Shown here: one piece after another, positions 3,737-41,974 of the stretch
How the letters are laid out: each line of letters opens with the position of its first letter
How positions within the stretch are numbered: the stretch's first letter is position 1
NCBI GenBank assembly: GCA_028688995.1
Contig: JAQTXB010000004.1
Coordinates: forward strand, 35,636-99,635
From: Aliarcobacter sp.
GTDB lineage: Bacteria; Campylobacterota; Campylobacteria; Campylobacterales; Arcobacteraceae
Length of the DNA stretch: 64,000 bases
Direction: 5' to 3'
Position numbers and translations under genes: made by a program
The notes under the pieces: model-generated
The model's database searches: none
What the model saw: the letters and a program-made list of their open reading frames with translations, nothing else
Told to the model about the DNA's origin: nothing

Positions 3737-3750
3737 TGAATAATCATTCA
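3737..3750. promoter_or_regulatory. Palindromic operator candidate in the hydA upstream region
   Basis: (A)TGAATAATCATTCA(T); weaker copies at 3937-3950 and 3959-3972. Confidence 0.55.
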
Positions 3751-3802
3751 TAAAAAAGTGTATATAAGTAACAAGTTTAAAAAAATATTAGATTAATATC
3801 TT

Positions 3803-3829
3803 CTTAGGTAATTTTAGAACAAAAATTAT
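3803..3829 (+). promoter_or_regulatory. Asymmetric 27-bp box upstream of hydA, followed by a -10 (TAAAAT 3840-3845)
   Basis: CTTAGGTAATTTTAGAACAAAAATTAT is 26/27 identical to the reverse complement of 39687-39713. Confidence 0.65.
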
Positions 3830-3991
3830 TTAACCACCATAAAATCATTGAATAAAATCTTTTTTATAAAAATATGAGCATAAATGCTATCTTAAAGCTA
3901 TTTTAGGGCATTTTAAATTAAGTGAATAATAAGTTTTGAATTGTTATTTTACAATAAGTAAATGAACATTCATTTTTAAGGAGTAAGAGGT

Positions 3992-5227
3992 ATGATTGAT
4001 TCGCAAGATATGGTAAAAAAAGTTTTTACCCAAAAATCAGGGAAAGTGGAAACAAATAAGGGTGAAGAGTATTATAACTCATTATTTGAAAAAGTAAAAG
4101 ACCGTTTATCAATGTTAAAAGCGCAACCAGCACTTAAAGATATTGATATGATGGATGTAATAGAGAGTGAAGGTGTAAATAGAAGAGATTTCTTAAAGTG
4201 GGTTAGTGCTACAACTGCTACACTTATGTTACCTCCTATGTTTGCTCCATTAGTTGCTGAAGCTACTGAACTTATGAATAGAGTTCCAGTTATTTGGATT
4301 GAATTACAAGATTGTGCTGGAAATTCTGAAGCACTTTTAAGAAGTTCAGCTCCAACAGTTGACGACTTATTATTTGATGTTTTAAGTTTAGAGTACCATG
4401 AAACTTTACAAGCTTGTGCTGGACATGATGCTGATAAACAATTAGAAGAAGCAGTTGAGCATTTTAAAGGTAAATATTTACTTTTTGTTGAAGGTGCAAT
4501 TCCAATGGCTATGAATGGCCAATATGGAACAATTGGTGCTATGGGTGAAACATTCCATGATCATCTTGTAAGAATGGCAAAAGATTCAGCTGCTGTTGTA
4601 GCTGTTGGAACTTGTGCTACATTTGGTGGGATTCCAGCTGCTGCTCCAAATCCAACTGGTGCTGTTGGAGTTATGGATATAGTAAAAGGTAAACCAATTA
4701 TCAATATTCCAGCATGTCCTGCAAATCCTGCAAATATGGTTGGAGTTGTTTTACATTATGTTTTAACTGGTCAAATTCCAGAACTTGATTCACTTTTAAG
4801 ACCAAAATTTGCATTTGGTTATAGAATCCATGATAATTGTGAGAGAAGAGCTCACTTTGATGCTGGTGAATTCGTAGAAGAGTGGGGAGATGAAGGGGCT
4901 AAAAACAACTTCTGTTTATATAAAGTTGGTTGTAAAGGTCCAATGACATTTAATAACTGCTCAATTATTAGATATAACGAAGGTACTAACTGGCCAATTG
5001 GTGTAGGACGAGGATGTATTGGATGTTCTGAGCCACAATTCTGGGATAAATATGCTTATGAAAGACCAATGGCAGATGCAAAAATCAAAGCACCAACTGG
5101 TGGAGTTGAAAAAACTGTAGATGAGTTTGGTTTAGGATTATTAACAGCGACAGCTATTGGTATAGGAGTTCATGCAGTGGCATCAGCAGTTGCAGGAAAA
5201 AAATCAAATGAAGGGGAAGATAAATAA
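3992..5227 (+). CDS. hydA: Membrane-bound H2-uptake [NiFe]-hydrogenase small subunit (group 1b-like), Tat-exported, C-terminal anchor
   Basis: NRRDFLKW Tat motif at residues 63-70; ELQDCAGNSE; CPANP; CERRAHF; CLYKVGCKGP; GCIGC; C-terminal TM helix. Confidence 0.95.
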   Translation: MIDSQDMVKKVFTQKSGKVETNKGEEYYNSLFEKVKDRLSMLKAQPALKDIDMMDVIESEGVNRRDFLKWVSATTATLMLPPMFAPLVAEATELMNRVPVIWIELQDCAGNSEALLRSSAPTVDDLLFDVLSLEYHETLQACAGHDADKQLEEAVEHFKGKYLLFVEGAIPMAMNGQYGTIGAMGETFHDHLVRMAKDSAAVVAVGTCATFGGIPAAAPNPTGAVGVMDIVKGKPIINIPACPANPANMVGVVLHYVLTGQIPELDSLLRPKFAFGYRIHDNCERRAHFDAGEFVEEWGDEGAKNNFCLYKVGCKGPMTFNNCSIIRYNEGTNWPIGVGRGCIGCSEPQFWDKYAYERPMADAKIKAPTGGVEKTVDEFGLGLLTATAIGIGVHAVASAVAGKKSNEGEDK

Positions 5228-6969
5228 TGGCAAATAAACACTTAGTAATTGATCCAATTACAAGAATTGAAGGACATCTTAGAATTGAAGCAATTATAGA
5301 TGAAAACAATACTGTAGTAGATGCTTATTCTTCATCAACAATGTTTAGAGGGATTGAAGAGATTTTAAAAGGAAGAGACCCAAGAGATTGTGGTCTATTA
5401 GCAATGAGAATTTGTGGAGTTTGTACAGGAACTCACTATCAAAGAAGTATTGAAGCAGTTGAACATGCGTTTAAAATTACTATTCCTAAAAATGCAAGAT
5501 TAGTAAGAAACCTTATTCAAGGTGCTTTATATGTACATGACCATATTGTTCATTTCTATCATTTACATGCACTTGACTGGGTTGATATTACAGAAGCTTT
5601 AAAAGCTGATCCAAAAGCAACAGTTGCAGAAGCTCAAAAATGGGCAGCAGTTTCAGGTCACAGACCATGGAATGCAACAGAAGATGTTTATGCACAAGTT
5701 CAAGAAAGAGTAACAAGATATGTAAAACAAGGAAGACTTGGAATCTTTGGAAACGCATATTGGGGAAGTAAAGGATTTAAACTAACTCCTGAGCAAAACT
5801 TAATTGGACTTTCTCACTATTTAGATGCTTTAGAATTACAAAGAGATTTAGCAAAAATGATGGCTATTTTTGGTGGAAAAAATCCACATCCACAATCATT
5901 TGTTGTAGGTGGAGTAACTTGTGTTCAAGATATTAAAAATCCTGCAAGAATTGCTGAATTTAAGCAAATTCTAAAAAGAGGTCAAAAATTCACTAAAGAA
6001 GCATATTTACCAGATGTTTATATGGCTGGAACAATGTATGCTGGTGAAGCATTAGAAGGAATTGGTGGTGGTTTAGGAAACTATATGTGTTATGGAGACT
6101 TTAGACTTGATGATACACCATTCTATGAAGCAGCAAAATTATTCCCATCAGGAATTGTAAAAAACAAAGATTTATCAAAAGTATTTGATATTGACCAAAC
6201 AAAAATTACAGAAGATGTTACTCATGCTTGGTATGAAGGTAATACAAATTTACATCCATTTGAAGGTGTTACTAAACCTGCATATACTGGTTTTGGTAAA
6301 AAAGAAGACAATATTGCTTATCTTGATACAACTAAAAAATATTCTTGGATTAAATCTCCATTATATGATGACGAAAGAATGGAAGTTGGACCACTAGCTA
6401 GAATGATAGTAGGTGTTGCACGTGGTGATGAGAGAATTTCTAAATATGTAACAACATTCTTAAAAAACGGAAACTTACCAACAGCTGTATTATTTTCAAC
6501 AGTTGGTAGAACTGCAGCTCGTGCAATTGAAACAGAACTTATGGTTGATGTTATGATGGAATGGGTTGATGAATTAGCTTCAAATGTAGCCCATGGAGAT
6601 TTATCAACATGGACTGAATTTAATTTTGAGAATGTTTCAAAAGAGGCTCAAGGTTATGGAATGGCTGAAGCTCCAAGAGGTGGTTTAGGACATTGGATTA
6701 AAATCAAAGATGGAAAAGTAATAAATTATCAAGCGGTAGTTCCATCAACTTGGAATGCAGCTCCAAGAGATTATAAAGGAAGAATGGGTGCTTATGAATC
6801 AGCATTAATTGGTACAAAAGTAGCAAATGTGGATCAACCACTTGAGATTTTAAGAACAATCCATAGTTTTGACCCTTGTATTGCTTGTGCTGTACATATT
6901 GTTGACACAAAAGGTAAAGAATTAGGTGTTTATAAAGTAGATCCAATTGGAGGAACAAGCCGTGCCTAA
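5227..6969 (+). CDS. hydB: [NiFe]-hydrogenase large subunit
   Basis: DPITRIEGH, L1 RICGVC, L2 DPCIACAVH followed by a cleavable C-terminal extension. Confidence 0.97.
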   Translation: MANKHLVIDPITRIEGHLRIEAIIDENNTVVDAYSSSTMFRGIEEILKGRDPRDCGLLAMRICGVCTGTHYQRSIEAVEHAFKITIPKNARLVRNLIQGALYVHDHIVHFYHLHALDWVDITEALKADPKATVAEAQKWAAVSGHRPWNATEDVYAQVQERVTRYVKQGRLGIFGNAYWGSKGFKLTPEQNLIGLSHYLDALELQRDLAKMMAIFGGKNPHPQSFVVGGVTCVQDIKNPARIAEFKQILKRGQKFTKEAYLPDVYMAGTMYAGEALEGIGGGLGNYMCYGDFRLDDTPFYEAAKLFPSGIVKNKDLSKVFDIDQTKITEDVTHAWYEGNTNLHPFEGVTKPAYTGFGKKEDNIAYLDTTKKYSWIKSPLYDDERMEVGPLARMIVGVARGDERISKYVTTFLKNGNLPTAVLFSTVGRTAARAIETELMVDVMMEWVDELASNVAHGDLSTWTEFNFENVSKEAQGYGMAEAPRGGLGHWIKIKDGKVINYQAVVPSTWNAAPRDYKGRMGAYESALIGTKVANVDQPLEILRTIHSFDPCIACAVHIVDTKGKELGVYKVDPIGGTSRA

Positions 6970-7666
6970 CATTAAAGAGGTTAAAAGAATGACAGGAACT
7001 ATGCGAATCATACATTGGGCTAATGCTATATGTATGGTAGTTGCTGTTATAACCGGTTTATATATAGGTCACCCTTATTACCAATCATTTATTGCTGATC
7101 CTGCTGTGGATAAGTATGTAATGGCATGGAATAGATGGGGGCATTTTATAGTTGCAATTATCTTTGATGTAACTGCTGTAATAATTGGTTATTTATATTT
7201 CTTTTCAAGATTTGAAAAACCATATAAAAAACTAATACCAACTATAAAAAATATAGTTGAATTTTGTGAAGTATTCTTAAATCTAATTACTTTTAATAGA
7301 AGAAAGAAATTTGATTCATCACATAGTGATAGTTATAATATTGTATTTTTCACAATATTCCATCTATTATTAATATTTATGTTATTTACTGGACTTCAAC
7401 TTTATGTTCATGGTTTAGCATCAGGTGAGAGTTCTATTGGATCTTGGTGGCCTTGGATGCTTCACTTTACAACTGATTGGACTTTAAATGTATTTGGTGG
7501 AAATATGGGTGTTAGAATTGCTCATCATACATCAATGTATTTAATTCTAGTTTGGGTAATGTGTCATATTTATTATCAAATCTGGAGAACAATCTTCTGG
7601 AAAGAGGGTGACATTGCTATTGTCATTGGCGGAAGTAAGTTTGTAAGAGAAGAAGAAAAAAAATAG
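6947..7666 (+). CDS. hydC: Hydrogenase cytochrome b subunit
   Basis: RIIHWANA, RWGHF, RIAHH His ligands in TM helices; follows hydB. Confidence 0.93.
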   Translation: MEEQAVPNIKEVKRMTGTMRIIHWANAICMVVAVITGLYIGHPYYQSFIADPAVDKYVMAWNRWGHFIVAIIFDVTAVIIGYLYFFSRFEKPYKKLIPTIKNIVEFCEVFLNLITFNRRKKFDSSHSDSYNIVFFTIFHLLLIFMLFTGLQLYVHGLASGESSIGSWWPWMLHFTTDWTLNVFGGNMGVRIAHHTSMYLILVWVMCHIYYQIWRTIFWKEGDIAIVIGGSKFVREEEKK

Positions 7667-7711: not shown

Positions 7712-8305
7712 ATGAAAAAAAGAAATATTGTAATTGGTGTTGGAAATATGCTTTTTAAAGATGAAGGTATTGGTATTTACGCTTCTGAGTATATTAGTCA
7801 AAATTACGAGTTCGATGATAAAGATTTAGAGATAATTGATGGTGGGACATTAGGGTTTAAACTAATGGCATATTTTCAAGAGTATGACAATGTTATTATT
7901 TTAGATACTGTGTCTATTGAAGATGAGATAGGAGGAATTTATAGACTTCCATCTGATGTACTTTTAGGATTAGGAAACTACAGAAAAACAGCCCATGAGG
8001 TTGAAATTGTAGAGATGTTAGAAATAGTTTCTGTTTTAGATTCTCATGCAAATGTAACAATAATAGGGATAATTCCAAAAGATATTGAAAGTGTTCAAAT
8101 AGGGCTTACAAATGAGATGGAAGATAAATTTGAAGAGTTTATTTTAAATGGTATAAAAGAGATAGAAAGTCTTGGAATTAAAGCTACAAAAGTAAATGAT
8201 ATAAAAATTAGTGATGTAGTAAAAAGCATGATAGGAAGTTATAATGGTGAACATTTAACAAGAATCCCAAATGAAGAAGATTTTACCCATGCAATTAATT
8301 TATAA
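7712..8305 (+). CDS. hydD: Hydrogenase maturation endopeptidase
   Basis: IGVGNMLFKDEGIG, IIDGGTLG, KTAHEV motifs of the HyaD/HybD family. Confidence 0.95.
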   Translation: MKKRNIVIGVGNMLFKDEGIGIYASEYISQNYEFDDKDLEIIDGGTLGFKLMAYFQEYDNVIILDTVSIEDEIGGIYRLPSDVLLGLGNYRKTAHEVEIVEMLEIVSVLDSHANVTIIGIIPKDIESVQIGLTNEMEDKFEEFILNGIKEIESLGIKATKVNDIKISDVVKSMIGSYNGEHLTRIPNEEDFTHAINL

Positions 8306-9821
8306 AATAGAATTTAACACTACAAATCTATATTTTAAACACATTATTGAAAGTTTAATAACAGAGGCTAAAATAAAAGCCACTTGCAAACAATATAATG
8401 GTTTTATACTAATTATTGTAGATGCTCTTGCTCAAGAGATAGAAGATTTTTTTGCTTTGTTAGAAAGAAAATTACCACTTAGTATTTTTATAGGTAAATC
8501 TTACGTTGTAGAAACTTATGATGAAACTTTAAAAGAAGTAGAAGATTTTGATATAAAACAGAATTTAACAATTCTTACAAATGATGTAATAAAGAATATA
8601 ATAGAAGAGAATCATATAGATTTTTTAAATGATATTGTAAAAATTACAAAAGGTGGAGTTTCAAGATTTGAAACACAAAATGGTTTAAAAGACTATTTTT
8701 TACCAAATAAAAATATTAGAGAAGATTTTGAGAATAAAGGTTTTGAGGTAAAACTATTAATTACTGATATTACAAAAGTAGAAGAAACTTTTGATATAAA
8801 TATGAAAGATTATCAACTACTTTGCTCAATTGAGAGACCTTTAGTAAAATTAAAATTTAAAATATTAAAAAATGCAAATAAAGAGTATTCATCTACAAAT
8901 TTTATTTATGCAAAAATTCCTGATGATAAACAAGTGGTTTTATTTGCAAAAGCTTTAAAAGATAATGGAATAAATCAAGTTTTATATGTTAATGATGAAG
9001 TTTATCAAGATGGATTAAAAATTACATATTTTAAAGAACAAAATCTAATTATTCATGGAGATAAAGGTTTATTTCCAAAATATGATTTTGTAGCAAACAA
9101 AAAATACAACTCTTCAAAAGATTATTTTGATGATAATGGTGGAGTTTTTAAAGCAGTTTTAGCTCAAAATGCAAAAAGATTAGTTACATCAATTGGAGTT
9201 TACTTTTCTCAAAATTCTCACAAAAGTTCAATTGCAGTGAATATCCCAACAAAGGGAATAAAAGATATTATCTCTATTCCAAATATTCACAATAGTATAA
9301 AAAATTGCTTTGAAGAGATTGCAGATATTGATGAACATTGTGCAAGATTAATTGCAAATTATTCTAAAAAATTTCCAACTGTATTAGAAGGTGATGTTCC
9401 ACAAGATACAAATGGTTTTGAGTCAATCATAAATATGTGTGCAAAAGTTTTAGGGGTAAATAGTTCAAAAGAGTTTGAAGATTTAGCTTTAAATGCAAAT
9501 TTAACAAGTGGTATTCAAATTGATATGAAACTTGTAAGTTTAGATGGAGTAAACTATTTGGACTATAGAAGAACGGTTCAATCAATAATGGCATATAAAA
9601 TGGCAGATGTTGATAATATAACTTTGATTTACTCTTTTTATGAAAGTTTGAGTGAATTTATTTGTAACTATGTAAATGAAATAGCAAATGATACAAAAAC
9701 AAATGATATTGTTTTATGTGGAAATATGTTTGCAAATTCAATTTTATTATCTAAAACAAATAAAACGCTTAGTAAAACTTATAATATCATTCTACCTAGA
9801 GAGTATCCTTTAGATTATTAA
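8271..9821 (+). CDS. hydE: HydE-type hydrogenase accessory protein (start may be 8289)
   Basis: Position after hydD as in Campylobacterota hyd operons; C-terminus IVLCGNMFANSILL resembles HypF IVLGGGVFQNRTLL. Confidence 0.75.
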   Translation: MKKILPMQLIYKIEFNTTNLYFKHIIESLITEAKIKATCKQYNGFILIIVDALAQEIEDFFALLERKLPLSIFIGKSYVVETYDETLKEVEDFDIKQNLTILTNDVIKNIIEENHIDFLNDIVKITKGGVSRFETQNGLKDYFLPNKNIREDFENKGFEVKLLITDITKVEETFDINMKDYQLLCSIERPLVKLKFKILKNANKEYSSTNFIYAKIPDDKQVVLFAKALKDNGINQVLYVNDEVYQDGLKITYFKEQNLIIHGDKGLFPKYDFVANKKYNSSKDYFDDNGGVFKAVLAQNAKRLVTSIGVYFSQNSHKSSIAVNIPTKGIKDIISIPNIHNSIKNCFEEIADIDEHCARLIANYSKKFPTVLEGDVPQDTNGFESIINMCAKVLGVNSSKEFEDLALNANLTSGIQIDMKLVSLDGVNYLDYRRTVQSIMAYKMADVDNITLIYSFYESLSEFICNYVNEIANDTKTNDIVLCGNMFANSILLSKTNKTLSKTYNIILPREYPLDY

Positions 9822-10883: not shown

Positions 10884-13127
10884 ATGAAATCATTTTTTAT
10901 TCAAGTAAAAGGCGTTGTTCAAGGTGTTGGATTTCGTCCTTTTATTTATAATCTAGCTTTAAAATATAACATAAATGGTTGGGTTAACAATGATGATAAA
11001 GGGGTGAATATTTTAATTTATTCATCTTTAAAAAACTGCCAAAATTTTTTAGAAGAACTTCAAGAAAATCCTCCAAAACTATCTTCAATAACTGACATAA
11101 AAATAGAAGAAATAATTTCTAAAGAAGAGTATAAAACCTTTGAAATAAAGCAGAGTCAAACTTCAAATAATAAATCTACAATTATCTCACCAGATGTGGG
11201 AATTTGTGATGATTGCATCAAAGATATTAATGATATGTCTAACTTTAGATACAATTATAGTTTAACAAATTGTACAAATTGTGGTCCACGGTATTCAATA
11301 ATAAAAACTGTTCCTTATGATAGAGTAAATACTTCAATGGCATCTTTTGAATTGTGTGAAGATTGTAAAAATGAGTATGAAAATCCAACAAATAGAAGAT
11401 ACCATGCACAACCAGTTGCATGCGAAAAATGTGGTCCAAATGTAACTTTGTATAACAAAAATGATGAGATTTTATCAGTAGGTATAAAAGCCATAGAAGA
11501 AGTAGCAGAATTGATTAATGAAGGTAGTATTGTAGCTATTAAAGGAATAGGTGGTTTTCATCTTATTTGCGATGCTAAAAATAGTAAAACCATAGAAGAG
11601 CTTAGAATTAAAAAGAATCGATTAAATAAGCCTTTTGCAGTTATGTTTAAAGATATAAAGGATATTAAAAATTATACAAACTTAACATTAAAAGAAGAAG
11701 AAATTTTAACTTCAAGAAATAAGCCTATTGTTCTTGTAAAAAAAAGAGAAGATTTTAAATTATCACAACTAATAGCACCAGATATTAATCATCTTGGATG
11801 CTTTATAGCTTATACACCTTTACATTACTTGCTTTTTAGATATTTGAATAATCCAATAGTTGCAACAAGTGCAAATCTAAAGGGTGAGCCAATTATTATC
11901 TCTAAGGATGAAATTCTTGGAAAACTATCAAATATAGTTGAGTTTGTTTTAGATTATAATAGAGATATTTTAAATGCAAGTGATGATTCAGTTATACAGA
12001 TTGTTAAAAATGATATTACAAAGATTAGAAATGCAAGAGGTTATGCCCCAACGGCTTTAAATTATGAAAATAAAAGTAATAAAAAGATACTTTCCCTTGG
12101 AGCTAATCAAAAATCTACTATTACTATTTATTTTGAAAATAATTTAATTTTATCTCCATATATATCAGAGTTAAACTCTTTAAAATCAATGGAATATTTT
12201 GAGAGAACTATAAATAGTTTTAAGAGATTTTATGACTTTGAACCTGATGTTATAGTTTGTGATAAACATCCAAATTATGAATCGACAAAATTTGCTTTAA
12301 AACTAAAAGAGATAAATCCAAATATAGAGTTAATTCAAATGCAACACCATTATGCTCATATTTTATCAGTGATGGCTGAGTATAAGTTAGACAAAGAGGT
12401 ATTAGCTTTTATTTTTGATGGAACTGGATATGGTGATGATGGAAATATTTGGGGTGGAGAGGTTTTTATAGCTTCAAAAAAAGAGTACAAAAGGGTTAAT
12501 CATTTTAAATATTTTAGACTTTTAGGTGGCGAAAAAGCAGTTCTTGAGCCCAAAAGAGTAGCTTTGAGTCTACTATTTGATACTTTCTCCCTTGATGAGA
12601 TTTTAACTCTTGAAATACCATGTGTAAAAGCTTTTAAAGAGAGTGAAATAAAAATGCTTCATACAATGTGGCAAAAAGGTTTAAATTCACCATTTACAAG
12701 CTCTGTAGGGCGTTTATTTGATGCTCTTGCATCATTTGCTGATATTTTGCATATTCAAAGCTATGAGGGCGAAACAGGCTTAAAAATAGAGCAAAACTAT
12801 GACAAAATTATCACTCAAAGTTACTCTTATGAAATAATCGAAAATCAAATTGATATATCACCTATGATAAAAGAGATAGTTTTAGAAAAAGATAAAAAAC
12901 AAATTTGCTCAAAATTTATAAATACTTTAGTTCAAATTATTTTAGATATTTCAAATATTCATAAAGATTTGCCAATAGTTTTAGGTGGTGGAGTTTTTCA
13001 AAATAGAACACTTCTTGAAATTTTAATTGACAAATTTCAAGAGCAGGGTAGGGAATTTTACTTTAATAAAACTATTCCATTAAATGATGGTGGAATAAGT
13101 GTAGGGCAAATTTATCACCAAATCTAA
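10884..13127 (+). CDS. hypF: Carbamoyltransferase HypF
   Basis: GVVQGVGFRPF acylphosphatase domain; CTNCGPRYS and CEKCGP Zn fingers; DKHPNY, QHHYAH, DGTGYGDDG, LNDGGISVGQ. Confidence 0.97.
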   Translation: MKSFFIQVKGVVQGVGFRPFIYNLALKYNINGWVNNDDKGVNILIYSSLKNCQNFLEELQENPPKLSSITDIKIEEIISKEEYKTFEIKQSQTSNNKSTIISPDVGICDDCIKDINDMSNFRYNYSLTNCTNCGPRYSIIKTVPYDRVNTSMASFELCEDCKNEYENPTNRRYHAQPVACEKCGPNVTLYNKNDEILSVGIKAIEEVAELINEGSIVAIKGIGGFHLICDAKNSKTIEELRIKKNRLNKPFAVMFKDIKDIKNYTNLTLKEEEILTSRNKPIVLVKKREDFKLSQLIAPDINHLGCFIAYTPLHYLLFRYLNNPIVATSANLKGEPIIISKDEILGKLSNIVEFVLDYNRDILNASDDSVIQIVKNDITKIRNARGYAPTALNYENKSNKKILSLGANQKSTITIYFENNLILSPYISELNSLKSMEYFERTINSFKRFYDFEPDVIVCDKHPNYESTKFALKLKEINPNIELIQMQHHYAHILSVMAEYKLDKEVLAFIFDGTGYGDDGNIWGGEVFIASKKEYKRVNHFKYFRLLGGEKAVLEPKRVALSLLFDTFSLDEILTLEIPCVKAFKESEIKMLHTMWQKGLNSPFTSSVGRLFDALASFADILHIQSYEGETGLKIEQNYDKIITQSYSYEIIENQIDISPMIKEIVLEKDKKQICSKFINTLVQIILDISNIHKDLPIVLGGGVFQNRTLLEILIDKFQEQGREFYFNKTIPLNDGGISVGQIYHQI

Positions 13128-14543: not shown

Positions 14544-16625
14544 ATGCATGGTTCTGATATAAATTCTGTTTGTACTTATTGTGGTACAGGATGTGATATT
14601 ACTGCGCAAGTTGAAGATAATAAAATAGTAAAGATTTACGCTCAAAATGATGGATATGTATCTCAGGGTAAACTTTGTATTAAAGGTGCACAAGGATTTG
14701 ATTTTGTTGCATCAGAGCAAAGAATTAGAAATGCAAGGGTAAAAAAAGCTTTTATTGAAAAAAATATAGATGAATTACCAAGAGAGTTAAAAGCTAGGGT
14801 AAAAACATTAAAATCATTTGATGATAACTATTATGAAGCTCCTTATGAATTTACAACTTCATTAGCTGCTTGGAAACTAATGGACATAAAAGAAAAATAT
14901 GGAAGACATGCTTTTTGTGGAATGGGAGGAGCTAGAACTTCATGTGAAAGTGCTTATGTTTTTCAAAAATTTGTAAGAGATGCTATGAATTCTCCCCATG
15001 TTGATAACTGTGCAAGGGTTTGTCATTCATCATCACTAAAAGGTATGAGAACAACAATTGGTGAGGGAGCTGCAACTAATCCTTTTGATGATATTTATCA
15101 AACTGAAAATATCATAGTAATGGGTTCAAATACAACTGAAGCTCATCCAATCGTTGCAAATAGGATTATCAAAGCGGTTAGGGACAAAACTGCAACTTTA
15201 TCAGTTCTTGATGTAAGACAAACACAACTTGCAAAATTTGGTGAACAGTTAGTAATTCCATATGAAGCAAATCTTTTAGTTTTAAATATGATGGCTTATG
15301 TAATTTTAAAAGAAGAACTTTATAACACAGAATTTATAGAAGCAAGATGTACAGGTTTTGAAGAGTTTAAAGAATCAATTTTAAATGACCCTTATGCAAA
15401 TCCTGAATTTATGCAAAATGTAAAAGGTTATGAGTATCTAACTGAACAAATTCCAACAGTTGCAAGACTTTATGCCACAAAAAAATCTATGTTTTTTTGG
15501 GGACTTGGAATCACAGAACATCTTGATGGAAGTTACGCTGTTATGGCAATTACACATCTTGCAATGTTAACAGGAAATATTGGAAAAACAGGATGTGGAC
15601 TTATGCCACTTCGAGGTCAAAATAATGTTCAAGGAGCTTGTGATACAGGATGTTTACCATATTATGGACCTGATTATTCTGTTCCTGAAGAGATTGGTTT
15701 AATGACTCCTCAATTAATTGATGAGATGATTGCAGGACGTGTAAAAGCTATGTATGTAATGGGTGAAGATATTGCTCATATTCATCCAAATCAAAATAAA
15801 GTTCATAAAGGTTTAGCAAATTTAGAATTAATCATTTCAAATGAGTTATTTATGAATGAGATTACTAAAATGGCAGATATTATCTTTGGTGTAAAATCAG
15901 CTTATGAAAAAACTGGAGTTTATGTAAATGCTATGAGAAGATTACATCTTTCTCAACCTTTAGTTGATATAGATTTACCAGATGATTGGGAAGTATTAAG
16001 AGATATTGAAAATAAAATCAATGGTGAATTTGAATTCAAAGATAGTGAAGATGTTTGGAATGAAGCAAAAGAGGCTGTTGGTTCAAGATTCTCAGGAGCA
16101 ACATATCACAAACTTTCAAAAAATAGAAATAGAGGAATGCTTTGGCCAATTAAAAAAGAGGATACTCCTATTTTACACGTTGAAGATTTTAGAACGCAAG
16201 ATGGAAAAGGAACTTTCGCTTATCATCAATATCAATTAAGAGAGCAAGTAAAAAAATTAGTAAATAATGAAGAGTTTGCTTCAAATGAGTTCTATTTAAC
16301 AACAGGAAGAACTATTGTTCAGTATAACAATGCAGCTCAAACGAAAATTAGTGATGCTTTAAATTCAAGATATGATAAAGATGTAGTTTTAGCTTCTATT
16401 GAAGATAAAGATAGAATTGGCTCTGACCATATTATTATGAGAACTCAATATGGAGAAACAGCAGTTTTACCAGTGAAGTTTGTAAAAACAATAAAACAAG
16501 GAACTCTATTTACAACATTCCATCATGCAACATCAAAAATTAACTATATCTTTGGTGATGAAGCAGATGAATTAATCATGACAGCGAAATTTAAATCAAT
16601 TAGAGTAGAGATAGAATCAGTTTAA
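14544..16625 (+). CDS. Cytoplasmic FdhF-like molybdopterin oxidoreductase (Cys at the active site, no Tat signal)
   Basis: CTYCGTGC...LC [4Fe-4S] motif; VDNCARVCH; GSNTTEAHP; LRGQNNVQG; LTTGR. Confidence 0.88.
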   Translation: MHGSDINSVCTYCGTGCDITAQVEDNKIVKIYAQNDGYVSQGKLCIKGAQGFDFVASEQRIRNARVKKAFIEKNIDELPRELKARVKTLKSFDDNYYEAPYEFTTSLAAWKLMDIKEKYGRHAFCGMGGARTSCESAYVFQKFVRDAMNSPHVDNCARVCHSSSLKGMRTTIGEGAATNPFDDIYQTENIIVMGSNTTEAHPIVANRIIKAVRDKTATLSVLDVRQTQLAKFGEQLVIPYEANLLVLNMMAYVILKEELYNTEFIEARCTGFEEFKESILNDPYANPEFMQNVKGYEYLTEQIPTVARLYATKKSMFFWGLGITEHLDGSYAVMAITHLAMLTGNIGKTGCGLMPLRGQNNVQGACDTGCLPYYGPDYSVPEEIGLMTPQLIDEMIAGRVKAMYVMGEDIAHIHPNQNKVHKGLANLELIISNELFMNEITKMADIIFGVKSAYEKTGVYVNAMRRLHLSQPLVDIDLPDDWEVLRDIENKINGEFEFKDSEDVWNEAKEAVGSRFSGATYHKLSKNRNRGMLWPIKKEDTPILHVEDFRTQDGKGTFAYHQYQLREQVKKLVNNEEFASNEFYLTTGRTIVQYNNAAQTKISDALNSRYDKDVVLASIEDKDRIGSDHIIMRTQYGETAVLPVKFVKTIKQGTLFTTFHHATSKINYIFGDEADELIMTAKFKSIRVEIESV

Positions 16626-31592: not shown

Positions 31593-31606
31593 TGAATTGT
31601 TATTCA
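31593..31606. promoter_or_regulatory. TGAAT-N4-ATTCA palindrome upstream of the diguanylate cyclase
   Basis: TGAATTGTTATTCA, 46 bp before the TTG start. Confidence 0.4.
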
Positions 31607-31652: not shown

Positions 31653-33518
31653 TTGAATAATATTAAAATTAAAAATTATCAAATCTTTTTGTTTTCTTTC
31701 TTATTTAGTGTAAATATTTTTGCTTTAGATAAGTTAGATTCTACTCCTTTTGTTTTAACTCAAAATGAGAAAAATTGGATAGAAACACATCCTATAATAA
31801 AAGTAGGTGTTGATAAAGATTATGCTCCTTATGAGTGGCTTGAAAATGAAGAGTATAAAGGTCTTGCTGTTGATTATATGAAACGAATTGAAAAAATTGT
31901 AGGAATAGAGTTTCAAATAGTTAAAAATAAATCTTGGAATGAAATCATAAATATGGCCAAAAATGGTGAAATTGATATGATTACAAGTATTGTGCAAACT
32001 CCTGAAAGATCAAAATATCTTAATTTTACAGAATTTTATAGAAAGTGTCCCGTAATTATTATTGACAGAGGGAATAATGGTTTTATTGGAGGATTAAAAT
32101 ATCTTAATAATAAAAAAGTTTCTATTGAAAAAGATTATTTTATGGAAGAGATTTTAAGAACTAATTATCCAAATATAAAATTACAAGTTGTTGATAGCAC
32201 AAAAAAAGCTTTAGAATTGGCAAATTCAGGGGAAGTTGATGCTTATGTTGGAGATTTAGGACTTGCAGATTATTTAATTAAAAAAAATAATTTATCAAAT
32301 TTACGTTTTTCAGGTCAAACTGAATATTTTAGTGACCAAGGTTTTGCTGTTACAAAAAATAATTCTGAACTTTTGAGTATTTTAAATAAAGCTGTAAAAT
32401 CTTTACCTGAAGATGAAACAGAAAATATGTTTAATTATTGGTTGAGTGTAGAGCGTGGGATAGATGTAAAAACTATAGTTTTTTACATTATAGGTATAAC
32501 ATTTATTTTACTAAGTATAATTTATTGGGTTTATAGATTAAGAAGTGAAATAAATCAACGTAAAATTATAGAAGATAAATTAAAACAGAGTGAATCCCTT
32601 TATCGACAATTAACAGAAGATGTAAATGATGTTATTTGGAAAGTAAATACAAATTTTATAGTTACTTATATTAGTCCTGCAGATGAACGATTTAGAGGAT
32701 TTAATGCAAGTGAAGTAATAGGAAAAAGTATTTTTGAATTGTTTACAGATGAAAGTATTATTCTTCTTAATGAAAAATTAAAAGAGAGATTTGAATTATT
32801 GCAAAAAGGTAATAAATTACCTCCTTTGAAAATAGAACTTCAACATAAATGTAAAGATGGAACAATAATTTGGGGTGAAATTTTATCAAAACAAGAGTTT
32901 GATGAAAATGGAAATATTATTGGTTATCATGGAATAACAAGGGAAATTACTGAACGTAAAAAACTACAAGAAAAAATAGAACAATTAGCTTATTGTGATA
33001 CCCTTACAAAACTGCCAAATCGTCGTTCTTTAGAAGATAAAATAAATTTTATAATGTCAAAAAGTGAGAGAAGTCAAAAGTATTGTGCTTTGGTTTTTAT
33101 TGATTTAGATAATTTTAAACCACTAAATGATACTTATGGACATAATGTTGGGGATATATTATTGATTGAAGTTGCAAATAGGTTAAAAAGCAGTATTAGA
33201 AAACTTGATGCGGTTGCTAGAATTGGTGGCGATGAGTTTGTAATTGTACTTGATGAATTTGATGAGGATATAAAAACATCAAAAGAAAATATTTTTAAAG
33301 TAGTTGAAAAAATAAGAATTTATATAGCCCAACCATATAAATTTAGTATAATAAATGAAGATAAAGAAAATATAGATATTGAGCATCATTGTACAGCTAG
33401 TATTGGAATTTGTATGTTCAAAGGAGAACAAGAGAGTTCTATAAATATCTTCAAATGTGCAGATTCAGCAATGTATGAATCAAAAGAATCAGGACGAAAT
33501 ACTATTAAGTTTTTCTAG
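31653..33518 (+). CDS. Diguanylate cyclase: periplasmic binding-protein sensor, TM, PAS, GGDEF
   Basis: VGVDKDYAPY PBP domain; TM; PAS/PAC (GYHGITREIT); DTLTKLPNRR, DLDNFKPLNDTYGHNVGD, ARIGGDEF. Confidence 0.93.
   Translation: MNNIKIKNYQIFLFSFLFSVNIFALDKLDSTPFVLTQNEKNWIETHPIIKVGVDKDYAPYEWLENEEYKGLAVDYMKRIEKIVGIEFQIVKNKSWNEIINMAKNGEIDMITSIVQTPERSKYLNFTEFYRKCPVIIIDRGNNGFIGGLKYLNNKKVSIEKDYFMEEILRTNYPNIKLQVVDSTKKALELANSGEVDAYVGDLGLADYLIKKNNLSNLRFSGQTEYFSDQGFAVTKNNSELLSILNKAVKSLPEDETENMFNYWLSVERGIDVKTIVFYIIGITFILLSIIYWVYRLRSEINQRKIIEDKLKQSESLYRQLTEDVNDVIWKVNTNFIVTYISPADERFRGFNASEVIGKSIFELFTDESIILLNEKLKERFELLQKGNKLPPLKIELQHKCKDGTIIWGEILSKQEFDENGNIIGYHGITREITERKKLQEKIEQLAYCDTLTKLPNRRSLEDKINFIMSKSERSQKYCALVFIDLDNFKPLNDTYGHNVGDILLIEVANRLKSSIRKLDAVARIGGDEFVIVLDEFDEDIKTSKENIFKVVEKIRIYIAQPYKFSIINEDKENIDIEHHCTASIGICMFKGEQESSINIFKCADSAMYESKESGRNTIKFF
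33291..33514 (+). repeat. 224-bp direct repeat, copy 1 (3' end of the diguanylate cyclase gene)
   Basis: Matches 35358-35581 with 5 substitutions. Confidence 0.95.
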
Positions 33519-33526: not shown

Positions 33527-33640
33527 TTAGTTTCGTTCCCAAGCTCTAGCTTGGGAATGCATACTTTTAGCAAAACAATATTTTGATTTATCTCACTTTT
33601 TTTATCTGCATTCCCAACGAAGACGTTGGGAACGAAGAAA
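33527..33640. repeat. REP doublet (REPIN-like) copy 1
   Basis: TTCGTTCCCAAGCTCTAGCTTGGGAATGCA ... TGCATTCCCAACGAAGACGTTGGGAACGAA: two 9-bp hairpins in inverted orientation. Confidence 0.9.
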
Positions 33641-34005: not shown

Positions 34006-34118
34006 TTAGTTTCGTTCCCAAGCTCTAGCTTGGGAATGCATACTTTTAGCAAAATACTATTTCAATTTGTCTTACTTTTTTATCTGCATTCCCAACGAAG
34101 ACGTTGGGAACGAAGAAA
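34006..34118. repeat. REP doublet copy 2
   Basis: Both REP hairpins identical to copy 1; internal spacer diverged from copy 1. Confidence 0.9.
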
Positions 34119-34920: not shown

Positions 34921-35033
34921 TTAGTTTCGTTCCCAAGCTCTAGCTTGGGAATGCATACTTTTAGCAAAATACTATTTCAATTTGTCTTACTTTTTTATCT
35001 GCATTCCCAATGAGGACGATGTGAACGAAGAAA
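34921..35033. repeat. REP doublet copy 3 (right-hand REP decayed)
   Basis: Identical to copy 2 except 4 substitutions in the right hairpin. Confidence 0.9.
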
Positions 35034-35094: not shown

Positions 35095-35131
35095 CTTTAC
35101 TTTTCAGAATTTCATTTGATTATTGGGGTTA

Positions 35132-35170
35132 TTATCTGGATTCCCAACAAGGACGTTGGGAACGAGGAAA
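35132..35170. repeat. Solitary REP (right half of a decayed fourth doublet)
   Basis: TTATCTGGATTCCCAACAAGGACGTTGGGAACGAGGAAA, 8-bp stem intact. Confidence 0.8.
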
Positions 35171-35357
35171 TAATTAAATTTGATTTTTAAATCATTAGTT
35201 TATTTTAGAAGTATCTTAATTTTATTTGTTACCTATTGTAAACAACGAGAGCTCAAATAGAAAATATATAAATTTACTAAATTGAGACATTTCATAAGAT
35301 ATGAATTAAAAAAATATAGTATATAAAGTTATATTATCAATTTATTTTGAATCTTAC

Positions 35358-35630: not shown

Positions 35631-35659
35631 AATGGGCAAGTTTTAAAAACTTGCCCATT
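35631..35659. terminator. Inverted repeat overlapping the MCP stop codon
   Basis: AATGGGCAAGTTTT-A-AAAACTTGCCCATT. Confidence 0.7.
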
Positions 35660-38979: not shown

Positions 38980-39030
38980 TTGTGTATTGTAGTTAAGCTT
39001 ATTTAAAATAAATTAAAGTAGAAGTTTAAT

Positions 39031-39663
39031 TCAAAGATTTCTTAAAATCTCTATTTGTTCATTTTGTGAGTAATTAAATCTAAACTCTGATTCTTTTAAA
39101 TAGTAAAAAAAGTTATCTTCTTCTACACCTTTGTATTTTTTGAGATTGTTTTCTAAAAAAATCCAAAACTCATTTAACTTTGTTTTGTGAGAATTTAAAG
39201 AGTGAATTTTATTCCAGTTTAAATATTGAATAAAACCATCTTCAATATCAAAAGCTCGTTTTCCAATTTTTGGCATCAGCAAGGTATATACTTTTTCATT
39301 TGAATAAAAGCCCATAATATTTATAGCTTCACTTAGAGATTTTTTCTTTTTCTTTTTTTCTCGCTCTTTTATATAATAAAACTCTTCATATTCATTGTAA
39401 TCTTTGATTGAGCTGTTGTATTCATTTTCCAAATATAGAGCAATTTTTTTTCTAAATAAATCAAATTTCTCTTTTACCGTTTTGTAGTTTAGTTCTAATT
39501 CCTTTGAAACTTCAAGGGCATTTTTATTTTCACAAAATTTAATGATGATTAAATCATCTTTTTGAAGTTTTTTTAAAGAGTACTTTTTTGCACAAGTTTT
39601 ACATTTGATGTAATCATTTGCTAAAGTATAAAAAGTAGTGTTATTACAGTTTTGACAAATCAT
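39031..39663 (-). CDS. IS1595-family transposase-derived protein (Zn ribbon + HTH, catalytic motifs degenerate)
   Basis: CQNC...CKTC; HTH-like ALEVSKELELNYKTV; C-terminal FWIFL...YKGV...FYYYLKESEFRFN; no terminal inverted repeats seen. Confidence 0.7.
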   Translation of the reverse strand: MICQNCNNTTFYTLANDYIKCKTCAKKYSLKKLQKDDLIIIKFCENKNALEVSKELELNYKTVKEKFDLFRKKIALYLENEYNSSIKDYNEYEEFYYIKEREKKKKKKSLSEAINIMGFYSNEKVYTLLMPKIGKRAFDIEDGFIQYLNWNKIHSLNSHKTKLNEFWIFLENNLKKYKGVEEDNFFYYLKESEFRFNYSQNEQIEILRNL

Positions 39664-39686
39664 GAGCTTATTCTAACATTATTTGT

Positions 39687-39713
39687 ATAATTTTTGTTCT
39701 AAAAATACCTAAG
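39687..39713 (-). promoter_or_regulatory. Asymmetric box shared with the hydA and hypB upstream regions
   Basis: 26/27 identity to 3803-3829; the 19-bp core is identical to 40925-40943. Confidence 0.65.
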
Positions 39714-39765
39714 AGATTTGAAAAATTATGATAAGTTTATAAATTACAAAATATACTACAGCAAT

Positions 39766-39779
39766 TGAACAACTATTCA
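39766..39779. promoter_or_regulatory. Palindromic operator candidate just before the Ni-transporter SD
   Basis: TGAACAACTATTCA, followed by T and SD AAGGA. Confidence 0.5.
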
Positions 39780-39790
39780 TAAGGAATAAT

Positions 39791-40432
39791 ATGGAAAACA
39801 TAGGTTTATTACTAATCTTTTGGTATGGAATTTTACATGCTTTTGGAGCTGACCATTTAACAGCGATTGCAGATTTTTCAATAGGAAAAAACAAAAAGAA
39901 AACATTACTAATAACTGCAATGTTTGCAATAGGTCATGGTATTTCACTTTTTATATTTGCAAAGTTATTAGAAACTTATCATATTTCAGATGAGATATTG
40001 GGTTATGGTGATGTTATTTCAGCTTCTGTTATTTTAGGTATGGGAATATATTTACTTTTTTTAGTTTTTACAAATAGAATAAATTTAACAAAACATATTC
40101 ACCATGGAGAGGAACATATTCATATTTACTTTGGGAAAGAGCATTCACACTCTACAAAAGATATAAGTTCAGCTTTTACAATTGGAGCACTTATGGGAAT
40201 AGGTGGAGTTAGAGGAATGTTAGTTACTTTAGGACTTGTTGAAAGTTCAAGTGTTGATTTTACTATGGTTTTAGCTTTTACTGTTGGAGTTATGATTGTT
40301 TTTATGGCATTTGGTTCATTTATTTTATATATTAATAAAAACTTATTAACATCAAAACAAAATATTAGAAGAGTATTTACAGTTGCAGGTCTGATTTCAG
40401 TTGCTGTTGGAACTAACTTTTTACTTGCATAA
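39791..40432 (+). CDS. Nickel/cobalt transporter (HoxN/NixA/NicO-like)
   Basis: GILHAFGADHL, FAIGHG, His-rich loop KHIHHGEEHIH...EHSH; multiple TM helices. Confidence 0.85.
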   Translation: MENIGLLLIFWYGILHAFGADHLTAIADFSIGKNKKKTLLITAMFAIGHGISLFIFAKLLETYHISDEILGYGDVISASVILGMGIYLLFLVFTNRINLTKHIHHGEEHIHIYFGKEHSHSTKDISSAFTIGALMGIGGVRGMLVTLGLVESSSVDFTMVLAFTVGVMIVFMAFGSFILYINKNLLTSKQNIRRVFTVAGLISVAVGTNFLLA

Positions 40433-40520
40433 ATATTTTATTAGAAAGTTGCGGAGTAATAATTGCATATAAAGGCAGTTAAGAGAGTATACTCTACAAT
40501 AAACTAATAAAAGGCATATA

Positions 40521-40913
40521 ATGAAAATAGCAATTCCAGTAAAAGATGAGAATTTAACATTCTTTAGTAATGCAGGACATACTCCAAATTTTGCAATCTA
40601 TGATTTAACAGGTTCAGGAATGTTTAGATCATTTAAATTAGACTCAGTAATTAGAAATCCAAGAACAGATATAGACCATGACCATGCTGAGGAAGACCAT
40701 GCTTGTGACCACGGACATGATGATGAAGAACATATTGCAGAACATAATAAAATGGGTGTGGCTTTAAGTGAATGTAGTTACATTGTAGTTAAAAAAGCTT
40801 GTAAAAACACAGCAAACTCATTTACTTCACAAGGTATAAAACTTGTAAAATATAATGGTGAAGCATTAGATGTAAATGCAATATTAAAAGAGACATCAGC
40901 TTCGTTTAAATAA
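40521..40913 (+). CDS. NifB/NifX-fold protein with a His/Asp-rich insertion
   Basis: MKIAIPV...NAGHTPNFAIYD N-terminus; DIDHDHAEEDHACDHGHDDEEHIAEH. Confidence 0.75.
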   Translation: MKIAIPVKDENLTFFSNAGHTPNFAIYDLTGSGMFRSFKLDSVIRNPRTDIDHDHAEEDHACDHGHDDEEHIAEHNKMGVALSECSYIVVKKACKNTANSFTSQGIKLVKYNGEALDVNAILKETSASFK

Positions 40914-40924
40914 ACAAATAAATC

Positions 40925-40943
40925 TTGTTCTAAAAATACCTAA
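40925..40943 (+). promoter_or_regulatory. 19-bp box upstream of hypB
   Basis: TTGTTCTAAAAATACCTAA, identical to 39694-39712. Confidence 0.65.
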
Positions 40944-40996
40944 CTGCAAATTAATATTATAGGACATTTAGACTTTTTGAGTTAAACTATTTAAAA

Positions 40997-41010
40997 TGAA
41001 TAATTATTCA
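40997..41010. promoter_or_regulatory. Perfect palindromic operator candidate upstream of hypB
   Basis: TGAATAATTATTCA, flanked by an outer AAACTATTT/AAATAGTTT inverted repeat. Confidence 0.6.
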
Positions 41011-41042
41011 CAAAAATAGTTTAAAACAAAAAGGAAAAAAAT

Positions 41043-41867
41043 ATGTGTAAAGATTGCGGTTGTACAATAGCAGGACAAGAACACCATCACCATCATCATC
41101 ACGATGACCATGAACATGGAATTGTTCATGACCATGACCATCCACATGACCATACAACTTGGAGCTCATCTCACCAAGCAGCTCATGAAACTTTAAATCA
41201 TAATCCCCAATTAAACGATGCAAAAACAATCTCTGTAATCAAAAAAATTCTTGATAAAAATGACCATGAAGCTTCACACAATAGAGCTCATTTTGATTCA
41301 CACAAAGTTTTAGGAATAAATCTAATGTCAAGCCCTGGAAGTGGAAAAACTACACTTTTAGAAAATATCGCTGATATGGTAAATTTCAAATTCGCAGTTG
41401 TTGAAGGTGACTTAGAAACTTCAAGGGATGCTGATAGATTAAAAGCAAAGGGAATTGAAGCTGTTCAAATCCAAACAGGAAGTGCATGTCACTTGGATGC
41501 GTTTATGGTTCATAAAGGTTTACATGATATTAACCTTGACAATATTGATGTTTGTTTTGTGGAAAATGTTGGAAATCTTGTATGTCCTGCTTCTTATGAT
41601 GTTGGAACTCACTTAAATATTGTTTTAGTTTCTGTTCCTGAAGGAGAAGATAAGATTGCTAAATATCCAGTAATGTTTAGATGTGCTGATTTAATTCTTA
41701 TTACTAAAACAGATTTACTTCCATATTTTGAATATGATATTGAAAAAGAGAAGATGGAAGCTAGAAAACTAAAACCAAATGTTGATATTTTAGAAGTAAA
41801 TGTAAAAGATAAACAATCACTTCAAAATGTAGTTGATTGGATTAATTTCAAAAGAAAGATGAGATGA
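41043..41867 (+). CDS. hypB: Hydrogenase nickel-insertion GTPase HypB with His-rich N-terminus
   Basis: MCKDCGC; poly-His; SSPGSGKTT; GSACH; ENVGNLVCP; TKTD. Confidence 0.96.
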   Translation: MCKDCGCTIAGQEHHHHHHHDDHEHGIVHDHDHPHDHTTWSSSHQAAHETLNHNPQLNDAKTISVIKKILDKNDHEASHNRAHFDSHKVLGINLMSSPGSGKTTLLENIADMVNFKFAVVEGDLETSRDADRLKAKGIEAVQIQTGSACHLDAFMVHKGLHDINLDNIDVCFVENVGNLVCPASYDVGTHLNIVLVSVPEGEDKIAKYPVMFRCADLILITKTDLLPYFEYDIEKEKMEARKLKPNVDILEVNVKDKQSLQNVVDWINFKRKMR

Positions 41868-41974
41868 TATTTGTAAAATCAATTTCATTCATTTAGGCTT
41901 CATGGTGGGTACTCAAAAATCAAAGATTTTTACCCTTCCGTTGCAGAATCATTCATAAAATTGTTTTACAAATA
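41868..41974. other. Long imperfect intergenic stem-loop between hypB and hypC
   Basis: TATTTGTAAAA(T)CAATTT pairs with AAATTGTTTTACAAATA; inner GGGTA/TACCC and AAAATC-AAA-GATTTT. Confidence 0.5.

Follow-up and report, generated by a model that had tools for sequence, protein, structure and literature searches.

A palindrome shared by hydrogenase, maturation and nickel-import promoters of Aliarcobacter and its relatives, with a hydrogenase-linked TetR-family protein as candidate repressor

The window analysed here, a stretch of 64,000 nt of Aliarcobacter sp. (positions 35,636 to 99,635 of contig JAQTXB010000004.1), carries genes for [NiFe] hydrogenases, their maturation and putative nickel import in two blocks that lie 36 kb apart, and a short palindrome, TGAAT-N4-ATTCA, stands before genes of both. 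In block 1 a TetR-family gene, tetR, is the first gene of the operon of a group 2d hydrogenase, overlapping huaS by 11 nt, and huaSL lies next to the uptake hydrogenase genes hydABC, from which huaL is separated by a 255-nt spacer; genes for a HyaD-type protease, a truncated HypF-like protein and, further on, HypF follow. Block 2 consists of a minus-strand gene for a 210-aa protein and, divergent from it, genes for a NicO/HoxN-like permease, a His-rich 130-aa protein and hypB-hypC-hypD-mazG-like-hypE-hypA. The window proteins are closest to those of Arcobacter and Aliarcobacter species, and near-identical DNA occurs in wastewater and groundwater metagenomes. The principal genes and palindromes are the following.

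902..1495, plus strand: TetR-family regulator gene, candidate repressor (PF00440, E 1e-14, above cut-off, when read from 899; ATT start)
1485..3736, plus strand: huaS-huaL, small and large subunits of a cytoplasmic group 2d [NiFe] hydrogenase, predicted to be co-transcribed with tetR (Pfam Oxidored_q6, NiFe_hyd_SSU_C, NiFeSe_Hases)
3737..3750: distal palindrome TGAATAATCATTCA, perfect match, directly 3' of the huaL stop codon and part of a minus-strand box-to-palindrome module (see below)
3959..3973: hydA-proximal putative operator TAAATGAACATTCAT, with a conserved core, immediately 5' of the hydA Shine-Dalgarno sequence
3992..7666, plus strand: hydABC, membrane-bound uptake hydrogenase (Pfam), predicted target with the operator directly upstream
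31593..31606: palindrome TGAATTGTTATTCA, perfect match, before an SBP_bac_3-PAS-GGDEF (diguanylate cyclase) gene and 8 nt 5' of an extended -10, TTGATATAAT
39766..39779: putative operator TGAACAACTATTCA, one mismatch, conserved, 11 nt 5' of the start codon of the NicO-like transporter gene
39791..40432, plus strand: NicO/HoxN-like putative nickel permease, 213 aa, predicted target (weak matches to NicO, E 0.0019, and TIGR00802, E 0.0025, both below cut-off)
40997..41010: putative operator TGAATAATTATTCA (flanked form ATGAATAATTATTCAC), perfect match, conserved, before hypB
41043..45114, plus strand: hypB-hypC-hypD-(mazG-like)-hypE-hypA (Pfam), predicted target with the operator before hypB

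At 27.6% GC, in agreement with the ~73% AT estimated in the original prediction, the shuffled window is expected to hold 0.55 perfect copies of the palindrome (the prediction had put this at ~0.4) versus the four observed, a number reached in none of 100 shuffles. The three copies that had been reported, at 3737, 31593 and 40997, do exist and are all intergenic; a fourth, at 16025, had been missed and is an ordinary coding copy inside a molybdopterin-oxidoreductase gene (14544-16625). When the intergenic portion (6167 nt, 23.7% GC) was tested apart from coding DNA, it contained three perfect sites versus 0.04-0.05 expected from composition (Poisson P ~1e-5), while coding DNA contained one versus 0.3 expected, and the palindrome is not equally frequent in coding DNA, the outcome that had been named in advance as refuting the idea. 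Copies with a single mismatch are not enriched as a class (10 observed versus 12.5 expected from shuffles) and were therefore each judged on conservation only. By this measure the site before the nickel transporter, at 39766, holds up, as does one of four weaker copies that had been listed, the hydA-proximal site at 3959; the other three, at 3937 (two mismatches, not conserved in A. suis L048), 865 (two mismatches) and 41942 (at least two mismatches, in a 131-nt hypB-hypC spacer that is missing from one related-strain metatranscriptome contig), are not supported.

Conservation was assessed in 132 related loci (1.53 Mb, labelled L001-L132). A scan for HypB relatives gave 45 loci, from Arcobacteraceae, Sulfurovum, Sulfurimonas, Sulfuricurvum, Sulfurospirillum and a few other phyla; anchoring on TetR added four genomes, through exact-protein look-ups, and 80 metagenome contigs, and two diguanylate cyclase loci were included. 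A simple regular expression run on the 45 HypB loci and the window (824 kb) returned 28 matches, of which ~22 lie immediately 5' of genes in the regulon, namely the NicO-like transporter gene (11 loci), nikM (two Sulfuricurvum contigs, one of them 47% GC; the product begins MHIPDGF...), hypB, hypA and a hydA-like gene (L011). The palindrome also precedes hypB in an Aquificaceae contig, and a separate site precedes hypA in L007 and L016. With a relaxed definition there are 77 sites in the 1.53 Mb, 45 of which have a recognised start codon no more than 200 nt downstream (NicO-like gene, 12; hydA, 9; hypB, 8; tetR, 8; nikM, 3; diguanylate cyclase, 2; hypA, hypC and huaS, 1 each), mostly at a distance of 11-23 nt from the ATG. 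The remainder are, by coordinates, mostly in huaL-hydA spacers or before hyaA, with ~7 in coding DNA. The 65 distinct sites give the consensus TAATGAAT-RATY-ATTCATTA, with a zero-spacer form, ATGAAY/RTTCAT, before hydA. The nickel importer behind the site varies by locus and is NicO-like, NikMNQO or HupE. The palindrome is thus kept before orthologous hydrogenase, maturation and nickel genes across genera, and the split regulon proposed originally, linking tetR-huaSL-hydABC (0.9-7.7 kb) with the transporter-hypB block (39.8-45 kb), is well supported; that an operator and a hydrogenase/nickel regulon exist is very probable.

The individual sites of the window differ in how far they are shared. 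Site 40997 has hypB-type equivalents in seven loci (L002, L005, L025, L040, L096, L097, L104), and site 39766 has equivalents before NicO-like genes (L001, L007, L009, L010, L014-L017, L019, L020, L032) and before nikM (L003/L004). The hydA-proximal site (TAAATGAACATTCA) has its core, ATGAACATTCAT, at 3962-3973, where it is best read as a zero-spacer dyad of ATGAAC and ATTCAT; the core ATGAAYRTTCAT stands at the identical place before hydA in L046, L048, L049, L050 and ~25 metagenome loci, recurring in A. suis, A. butzleri, Poseidonibacter and Halarcobacter 3 nt after a conserved TACAAT. Site 3737 is retained only in the closest relatives (L052, L054, L056) and is missing from A. suis (L048) and A. 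butzleri (L046), while a 14-mer identical to it precedes hyaA in L048 and L050. The perfect site at 31593 is kept, with a different N4, in a 90% ortholog (L132), but an 86% ortholog (L131) no longer has the left half. The diguanylate cyclase gene, which had been counted with the other targets, is only a lineage-restricted member of the regulon.

The position of the palindrome suggests how it would act. A -10-like hexamer lies 1-8 nt upstream, so the palindrome resembles a repressor operator over the predicted transcription start. In the window's box-to-palindrome modules the hexamer is TATACT, TAAACT or TATACA, 8 nt before the palindrome (TAAACT at 40983-40988 for site 40997 and TATACT at 39752-39757 for site 39766), while elsewhere it is TAAAAT, TATAAT or TATTAT at 1-3 nt; TACAAT (3950-3955) ends 3 nt before site 3959-3973. 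On this reckoning the site would extend from about -6 to about +14, where a repressor would bind rather than an activator. Metatranscriptome contigs (X1, X18, X20; unstranded, from mixed strains) give coarse depth only. In two wastewater metatranscriptomes depth is low over 3780-3940 and rises from ~3940-3990, and the transporter gene has low depth compared with its neighbours, which is compatible with the predicted promoter geometry.

The palindrome bears a close resemblance to the operator of Bacillus FadR (YsiA), a TetR-family repressor. In the FadR box, WTGAATGAMTANTCATTCAN, each dimer occupies an inverted repeat of 16 bp in which a 4-bp spacer separates the ATGA(A/G)T half-sites, and two dimers bind boxes that overlap in a 4-bp register (PDB 5GPC, PMC5397183). 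The palindrome has the same half-site in the same 6-4-6 inverted repeat; the 4-bp register overlap is also found, for example in TGAATGAATATTCA before A. butzleri hyaA, and the zero-spacer hydA sites correspond to the inner half-site pair of the FadR double box. By half-site and spacing, therefore, the palindrome conforms to a putative TetR-family operator of the FadR type. The two systems differ in that most sites here are single 14-16-mers, as against the 18-20-bp FadR double box, and in that the genes concerned form a hydrogenase/nickel regulon and not one of fatty-acid degradation. Further, the TetR protein of the window has an invariant GCEGxxCV motif in its effector domain and its gene is fused into a hydrogenase operon.

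That protein is of the TetR family by Pfam and by structure, its AlphaFold2 (AF2) model being all-helical with Foldseek matches that are all TetR proteins. FadR-type structures give the model's highest TM-scores (0.61-0.64), and the Bacillus FadR model of NCBIfam (NF053878) is second-best for the protein. At 43.3 bits versus an equivalog cut-off of 200, however, it is not a FadR ortholog. The TetR orthologs are 197 aa long and are 95% identical in A. suis and 89% in A. butzleri, which makes TetR far more conserved than its neighbours. Helix 3, the recognition helix (MSVGN[LM]YNYF), is invariant among orthologs that are 52-99% identical, and the half-site is likewise invariant. The GCEGxxCV motif (Cys120 and Cys125; residues 119-126, nt about 1256-1279) does not vary among the orthologs, of which the most distant is 52% identical, and may be a redox or metal site, on which the model is uninformative, AF2 confidence being low at residues 117-120. 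The gene has no ATG, GTG or TTG start; its frame opens with ATT at 902-904, 6 nt after an AAGGA Shine-Dalgarno sequence, and since the annotated A. butzleri tetR starts with ATT in the same place (L046:10001-10003), the rare start codon is conserved.

Linkage, too, connects this gene with the palindrome. The order tetR-huaS-huaL-hydA is found in A. butzleri, A. suis, Poseidonibacter lekithochrous and Halarcobacter mediterraneus (L046-L050) and in ~45 metagenome contigs, in which TetR is only 53-63% identical, and nearly all such loci have operators. In vent-type contigs (L096, L097, L104) the operon is hypB-tetR-huaSL, with the palindrome before hypB. Conversely, there are no sites in the hydrogenase loci that lack an adjacent tetR or hua gene (L022, L024, L033, L035, L045). 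Of 78 loci, 21 have a site with no more than one mismatch upstream of tetR, in most cases at 59-70 nt from the start, compared with ~7% of AT-rich control windows from the same loci. The linkage to be expected of a TetR operator is thus seen in ~50 loci, and a site through which tetR would regulate itself in part of the loci; the window itself has no good site of the latter kind. The original prediction had made the local TetR its prime candidate, and the FadR-like geometry, the linkage, the recognition helix and the tetR promoters of other genera favour it; we infer that TetR binds the sites, represses from them and responds to a signal, and regard it as the best candidate for the binder, with moderate confidence.

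The model to which these observations lead is that the palindrome would be a repressor operator over the predicted transcription start of uptake-hydrogenase operons (hydABC, and hyaABC in relatives), and that the same operator would control nickel-insertion and maturation genes (hypB and those that follow, hypA) and each species' own nickel importer (NicO-like, NikMNQO or HupE). The repressor would be the TetR-family protein of 902-1495, translationally coupled to huaSL, whose dimer would bind a pair of ATGAAT half-sites spaced by 4 bp, in the manner of Bacillus FadR, and obstruct RNA polymerase; a signal that releases it would switch on hydrogen oxidation together with nickel supply. We consider the model as a whole reasonably probable. 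Regulation of some of the genes concerned has been documented in A. butzleri, where H2 raises both hynAB (group 1b) operons 2-6 fold and lowers huaSL, and hence regulation of those genes exists; the supplementary expression values (PMC12286921) exclude tetR, hyp and transporter genes. Both A. butzleri group 1b operons carry the site in the loci examined (L046).

Several observations weigh against this model. The promoter of tetR in the window has, where other genera place the tetR operator (59-70 nt before the start), only a half-site, ATTCAT at 842-847, together with two-mismatch matches, and A. suis and A. butzleri are alike in this. Many hypB-anchored loci with the palindrome, including the Aquificaceae contig, show no tetR within 10 kb, although these are contigs and not whole genomes. 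Many TetR proteins share the helix 3 Gly and Tyr that make base contacts in FadR, so that these residues are no proof of specificity. The transcription starts are predicted, and the depth compatible with them comes from unstranded and strain-mixed contigs. Lastly, Sulfurospirillum multivorans is reported to have NikR (PMC5357620), which means that some of these bacteria at least possess a further nickel regulator with overlapping target genes.

It could be proposed from the first two of these points that the operator is genuine and is bound by an unlinked regulator, whether of the ArsR/SmtB type, of the Fur family, an unusual NikR or a TetR paralog. The content of the regulon, with three kinds of nickel importer, HypA and HypB, does resemble a nickel regulon. 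Indeed, the NikR regulons of E. coli, H. pylori and delta-proteobacteria likewise place nickel importers (NikMNQO, NiCoT-like) and hydrogenase genes under a promoter-proximal dyad. NikR boxes, however, extend over 27-28 bp (GTATGAT-N13/14-ATCATAC or GTGTTAC-N13/14-GTAACAC; PMC545781), whereas the palindrome is a compact dyad of 14-16 bp, the alignments contain no conserved second half-site at N13-16 and there is no nikR gene in the clusters; NikR was rejected on this architecture. Fur, which the original prediction had offered as its alternative, fails on similar grounds, as its consensus, GATAATGATnATCATTATC, is 19 bp with a single central base (PMC545781) while the centre of the palindrome is even (N4 or N0) and the half-site is TGAAT, not GATAAT. 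The case of ArsR/SmtB is different. Operators of this type, in a 12-2-12 arrangement, have a TGAA...TTCA core, which speaks for such a binder; ArsR-type sensors derepress upon binding metal, which would be illogical for importers. Together with the lack of a gene this led us to reject them: no ArsR, Fur or NikR gene was found next to the clusters, nor among the ~50 open reading frames (ORFs) scanned of the ~64 in the window, the ~18 others being mostly those of 18.6-28 kb and 51-63 kb. An unlinked regulator would, moreover, leave both the linkage to TetR and the FadR-identical geometry unexplained. We judge it unlikely, if not negligibly so, and retain the local TetR as the preferred repressor.

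A second element accompanies three of the window's palindromes, a 20-nt asymmetric box, TTGTTCTAAAAWTACCTAAG, with the family consensus TnGTnCnAAAAnTAnnTAAG. Its copies in the window, and the gene that lies beside one of them, are as follows.

3803..3822, minus strand: box TTGTTCTAAAATTACCTAAG (minus-strand sequence), in the same register relative to palindrome 3737-3750
39031..39663, minus strand: gene for a 210-aa protein with a zinc ribbon and a helix-turn-helix (HTH), candidate box binder, divergent from the nickel transporter gene and conserved in 14 loci
39694..39713, plus strand: box TTGTTCTAAAAATACCTAAG, its start 72 nt ahead of palindrome 39766; the divergent gene 39031-39663 begins 30 nt away from the box
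40925..40944, plus strand: box TTGTTCTAAAAATACCTAAC, starting 72 nt before palindrome 40997, in the same register as the 39694 copy

From box start to palindrome start the distance is 70-72 nt in the window and 64-74 nt in other loci, and the reference 13-mer lies 70 nt upstream; examples elsewhere are L001:9239, L004:2320, L005:8554 and 9789, L021:9229, and L131/L132 before nikK. Where the divergent 210-aa gene is present the box is always 17-30 nt from its start (adjacency of box and gene was counted in 13 loci). The box is found without the palindrome before NikKMLQO or NicO genes (L025, L027, L031, L034, L045, L131, L132), and the palindrome without the box or the 210-aa gene nearby (L007, L009, L011, L014-L016, L020 and the TetR loci). 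Each therefore occurs alone, and the two are independent elements. The box was also considered as a sigma-54 or ECF promoter and rejected as such, since it has no GG-N10-GC match and no shared -10 in the reverse direction. The minus-orientation box is present in A. suis L048 and H. mediterraneus L050 as well, while A. butzleri has a degenerate form of it. On the minus strand, the module at 3737-3822 is directed into the 3' end of huaL; it may act as an antisense RNA promoter or serve hydA at a distance.

The 210-aa protein has an N-terminal zinc ribbon (CxxC...CxxC) and a GerE/LuxR-like HTH, and is 78% identical to an A. defluvii protein. Its AF2 model (pLDDT 84) has sub-domain matches only, to zinc ribbons and GerE/LuxR HTH domains, and Foldseek returned no whole-fold relative in the PDB. 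Only its last 40 residues match an IS1595 transposase (NCBIfam E 1e-4, 22 bits versus a cut-off of 75), and there is no Pfam DDE match. An active IS1595 transposase was therefore rejected: the gene is single-copy and syntenic in several genera, so the protein is derived. With low confidence, we suggest a domesticated transposase with the box as its binding site; the box would have its centre near position -61 in the promoters of the transporter gene and hypB, and would also lie over the protein's own promoter. As it is encoded beside the transporter promoter in those 14 loci, and its model shows a zinc ribbon and an HTH, the protein might be thought to bind the palindrome, alone or with the box. 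This is improbable: many palindrome loci lack both gene and box, boxes exist without the palindrome, and the protein tracks the asymmetric box rather than the dyad.

Nor does the palindrome behave as an element of RNA. At least part of it is probably transcribed, given its location 11-23 nt ahead of the start codon, and it could in principle form a short hairpin at the 5' end of the mRNA beside the Shine-Dalgarno sequence. The stem would consist of only 5-6 A/U-rich pairs, and the zero-spacer form would be unable to make a hairpin; it is the sequence that is conserved, not the pairing. In TGAAC...ATTCA variants pairing is broken and the other arm is not changed to match, which argues for a protein site and against an RNA stem. 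A hairpin is very improbable. Chance clustering of an AT-rich palindrome in AT-rich spacers would fit the finding that one-mismatch copies are no commoner than in shuffles, but is refuted, for practical purposes, by the comparative data, position being kept across genera and in the 47% GC genome, with the intergenic Poisson P of ~1e-5 also against it.

The partners of the candidate repressor may bear on the signal to which it would respond. The group 2d genes beside hynAB in an A. butzleri isolate have been named huaSL (PMC12286921), and HuaS and HuaL of the window are 71-78% identical to the A. butzleri orthologs. The small subunit has 297 aa versus 411 aa for HydA, and HuaL ends in ...CSVCTTH, a CxxCxxH motif with no C-terminal extension. 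By orthology HuaSL is accordingly assigned as a putative group 2d [NiFe] hydrogenase with a cytoplasmic small subunit and an extension-less large subunit. A large subunit that lacks the extension removed by a protease is a trait of regulatory hydrogenases. The arrangement recalls the HupUV/HoxBC-HupT/HoxJ-HupR/HoxA cascade of Knallgas bacteria, in which a small cytoplasmic [NiFe] hydrogenase, its large subunit likewise without the extension, is encoded beside a regulated uptake hydrogenase. Here, however, the hydrogenase is of group 2d and not 2b and the linked regulator is of the TetR type; the linked genes scanned included neither a histidine kinase nor an NtrC-type activator. HuaSL and TetR might, we tentatively suggest, form a module that senses hydrogen, or redox state, with neither kinase nor response regulator, although we regard this as rather doubtful. 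The tetR-huaS overlap would couple their synthesis, such that HuaSL is made in a fixed ratio to the repressor. HuaSL would use H2 to alter the repressor, either directly through the Cys-x4-Cys of GCEGxxCV or via a reduced small-molecule ligand. The altered repressor would then leave ATGAAT-N4-ATTCAT, turning on uptake hydrogenases, Hyp proteins and nickel import. The box, bound by the domesticated IS1595-type protein, could form a second layer that adds nickel or another input.

The tetR-hydrogenase arrangement has been encountered before. In S. multivorans a TetR-like gene lies upstream of hupSL and was considered by the authors a possible hupSL repressor (Kruse et al. 2017, PMC5357620). That study, which describes the same gene arrangement, defined no operator or wider regulon, whereas the targets predicted here are hydABC, hyaABC, hyp genes and nickel importers. 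We found no paper defining the operator or regulon, in a search that was thin in subscription journals, so that novelty is not proven. What is proposed as new is a TetR repressor with a FadR-like operator that would control a regulon not previously linked to the TetR family.

Hydrogen oxidation is a main energy source in free-living and pathogenic Campylobacterota. An operator, a named candidate repressor and a predicted regulon (hydABC, hyaABC, hypB and the genes behind it, hypA and three importer families) make the control of hydrogen use testable in culturable Arcobacter, and the fusion of the repressor gene to a group 2d hydrogenase operon suggests a specific hypothesis for what this class of enzymes does. 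A hydrogenase-coupled TetR, if it exists, would give group 2d a function and would be a third route of H2 signalling beside HupUV-HupT-HupR. The motif may also aid annotation by flagging uncharacterised candidates for nickel transport, of which the 213-aa NicO-like protein and the His-rich 130-aa protein are examples.

The latter (40521-40913, plus strand), encoded between the permease gene and hypB, matches the NifB/NifX type (Nitro_FeMo-Co) weakly, contains a His/Asp-rich stretch, DIDHDHAEEDHACDHGHDDEEH, and may bind or store nickel. Single metatranscriptome contigs of related strains skip 39664-40453, and with it the NicO-like gene, or 39663-40925, where the 210-aa gene abuts the hypB box; the nickel-transporter slot is therefore variable among close strains. 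The contig mentioned above that lacks the 131-nt hypB-hypC spacer skips it within region 41865-41997. Between hypD and hypE lies a gene for a MazG-like pyrophosphohydrolase (43418-43774, plus strand), which also follows hypD in L025, while many other loci have a 560-aa HypX-like gene between hypE and hypA instead. The truncated HypF paralog of block 1 (516 aa; 8271-9821, plus strand) keeps only the C-terminal Kae1-like subdomain, full-length hypF being at 10884-13127; in almost every related cluster the gene for this paralog comes after that for the hydrogenase protease.

Diguanylate cyclase genes recur beside hyd and hyp clusters (31653-33518 and 45210-46529 in the window; L048:8505-9941; L046:5632-6627): in the window and in L005 one follows hypA immediately, and in A. 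suis one immediately precedes tetR. The gene at 31653 is the one that carries the palindrome. Between this gene and one for a methyl-accepting chemotaxis protein (MCP), a 113-nt repeat is present three times (33527-33639, 34006-34118 and 34921-35033, with a partial copy at 35129-35171), flanking small ORFs. Each copy contains two GC-rich hairpins, TTCCCAAGCTCTAGCTTGGGAA and TTCCCAACGAAGACGTTGGGAA, and the repeats look like REP/MITE-like elements or terminators.

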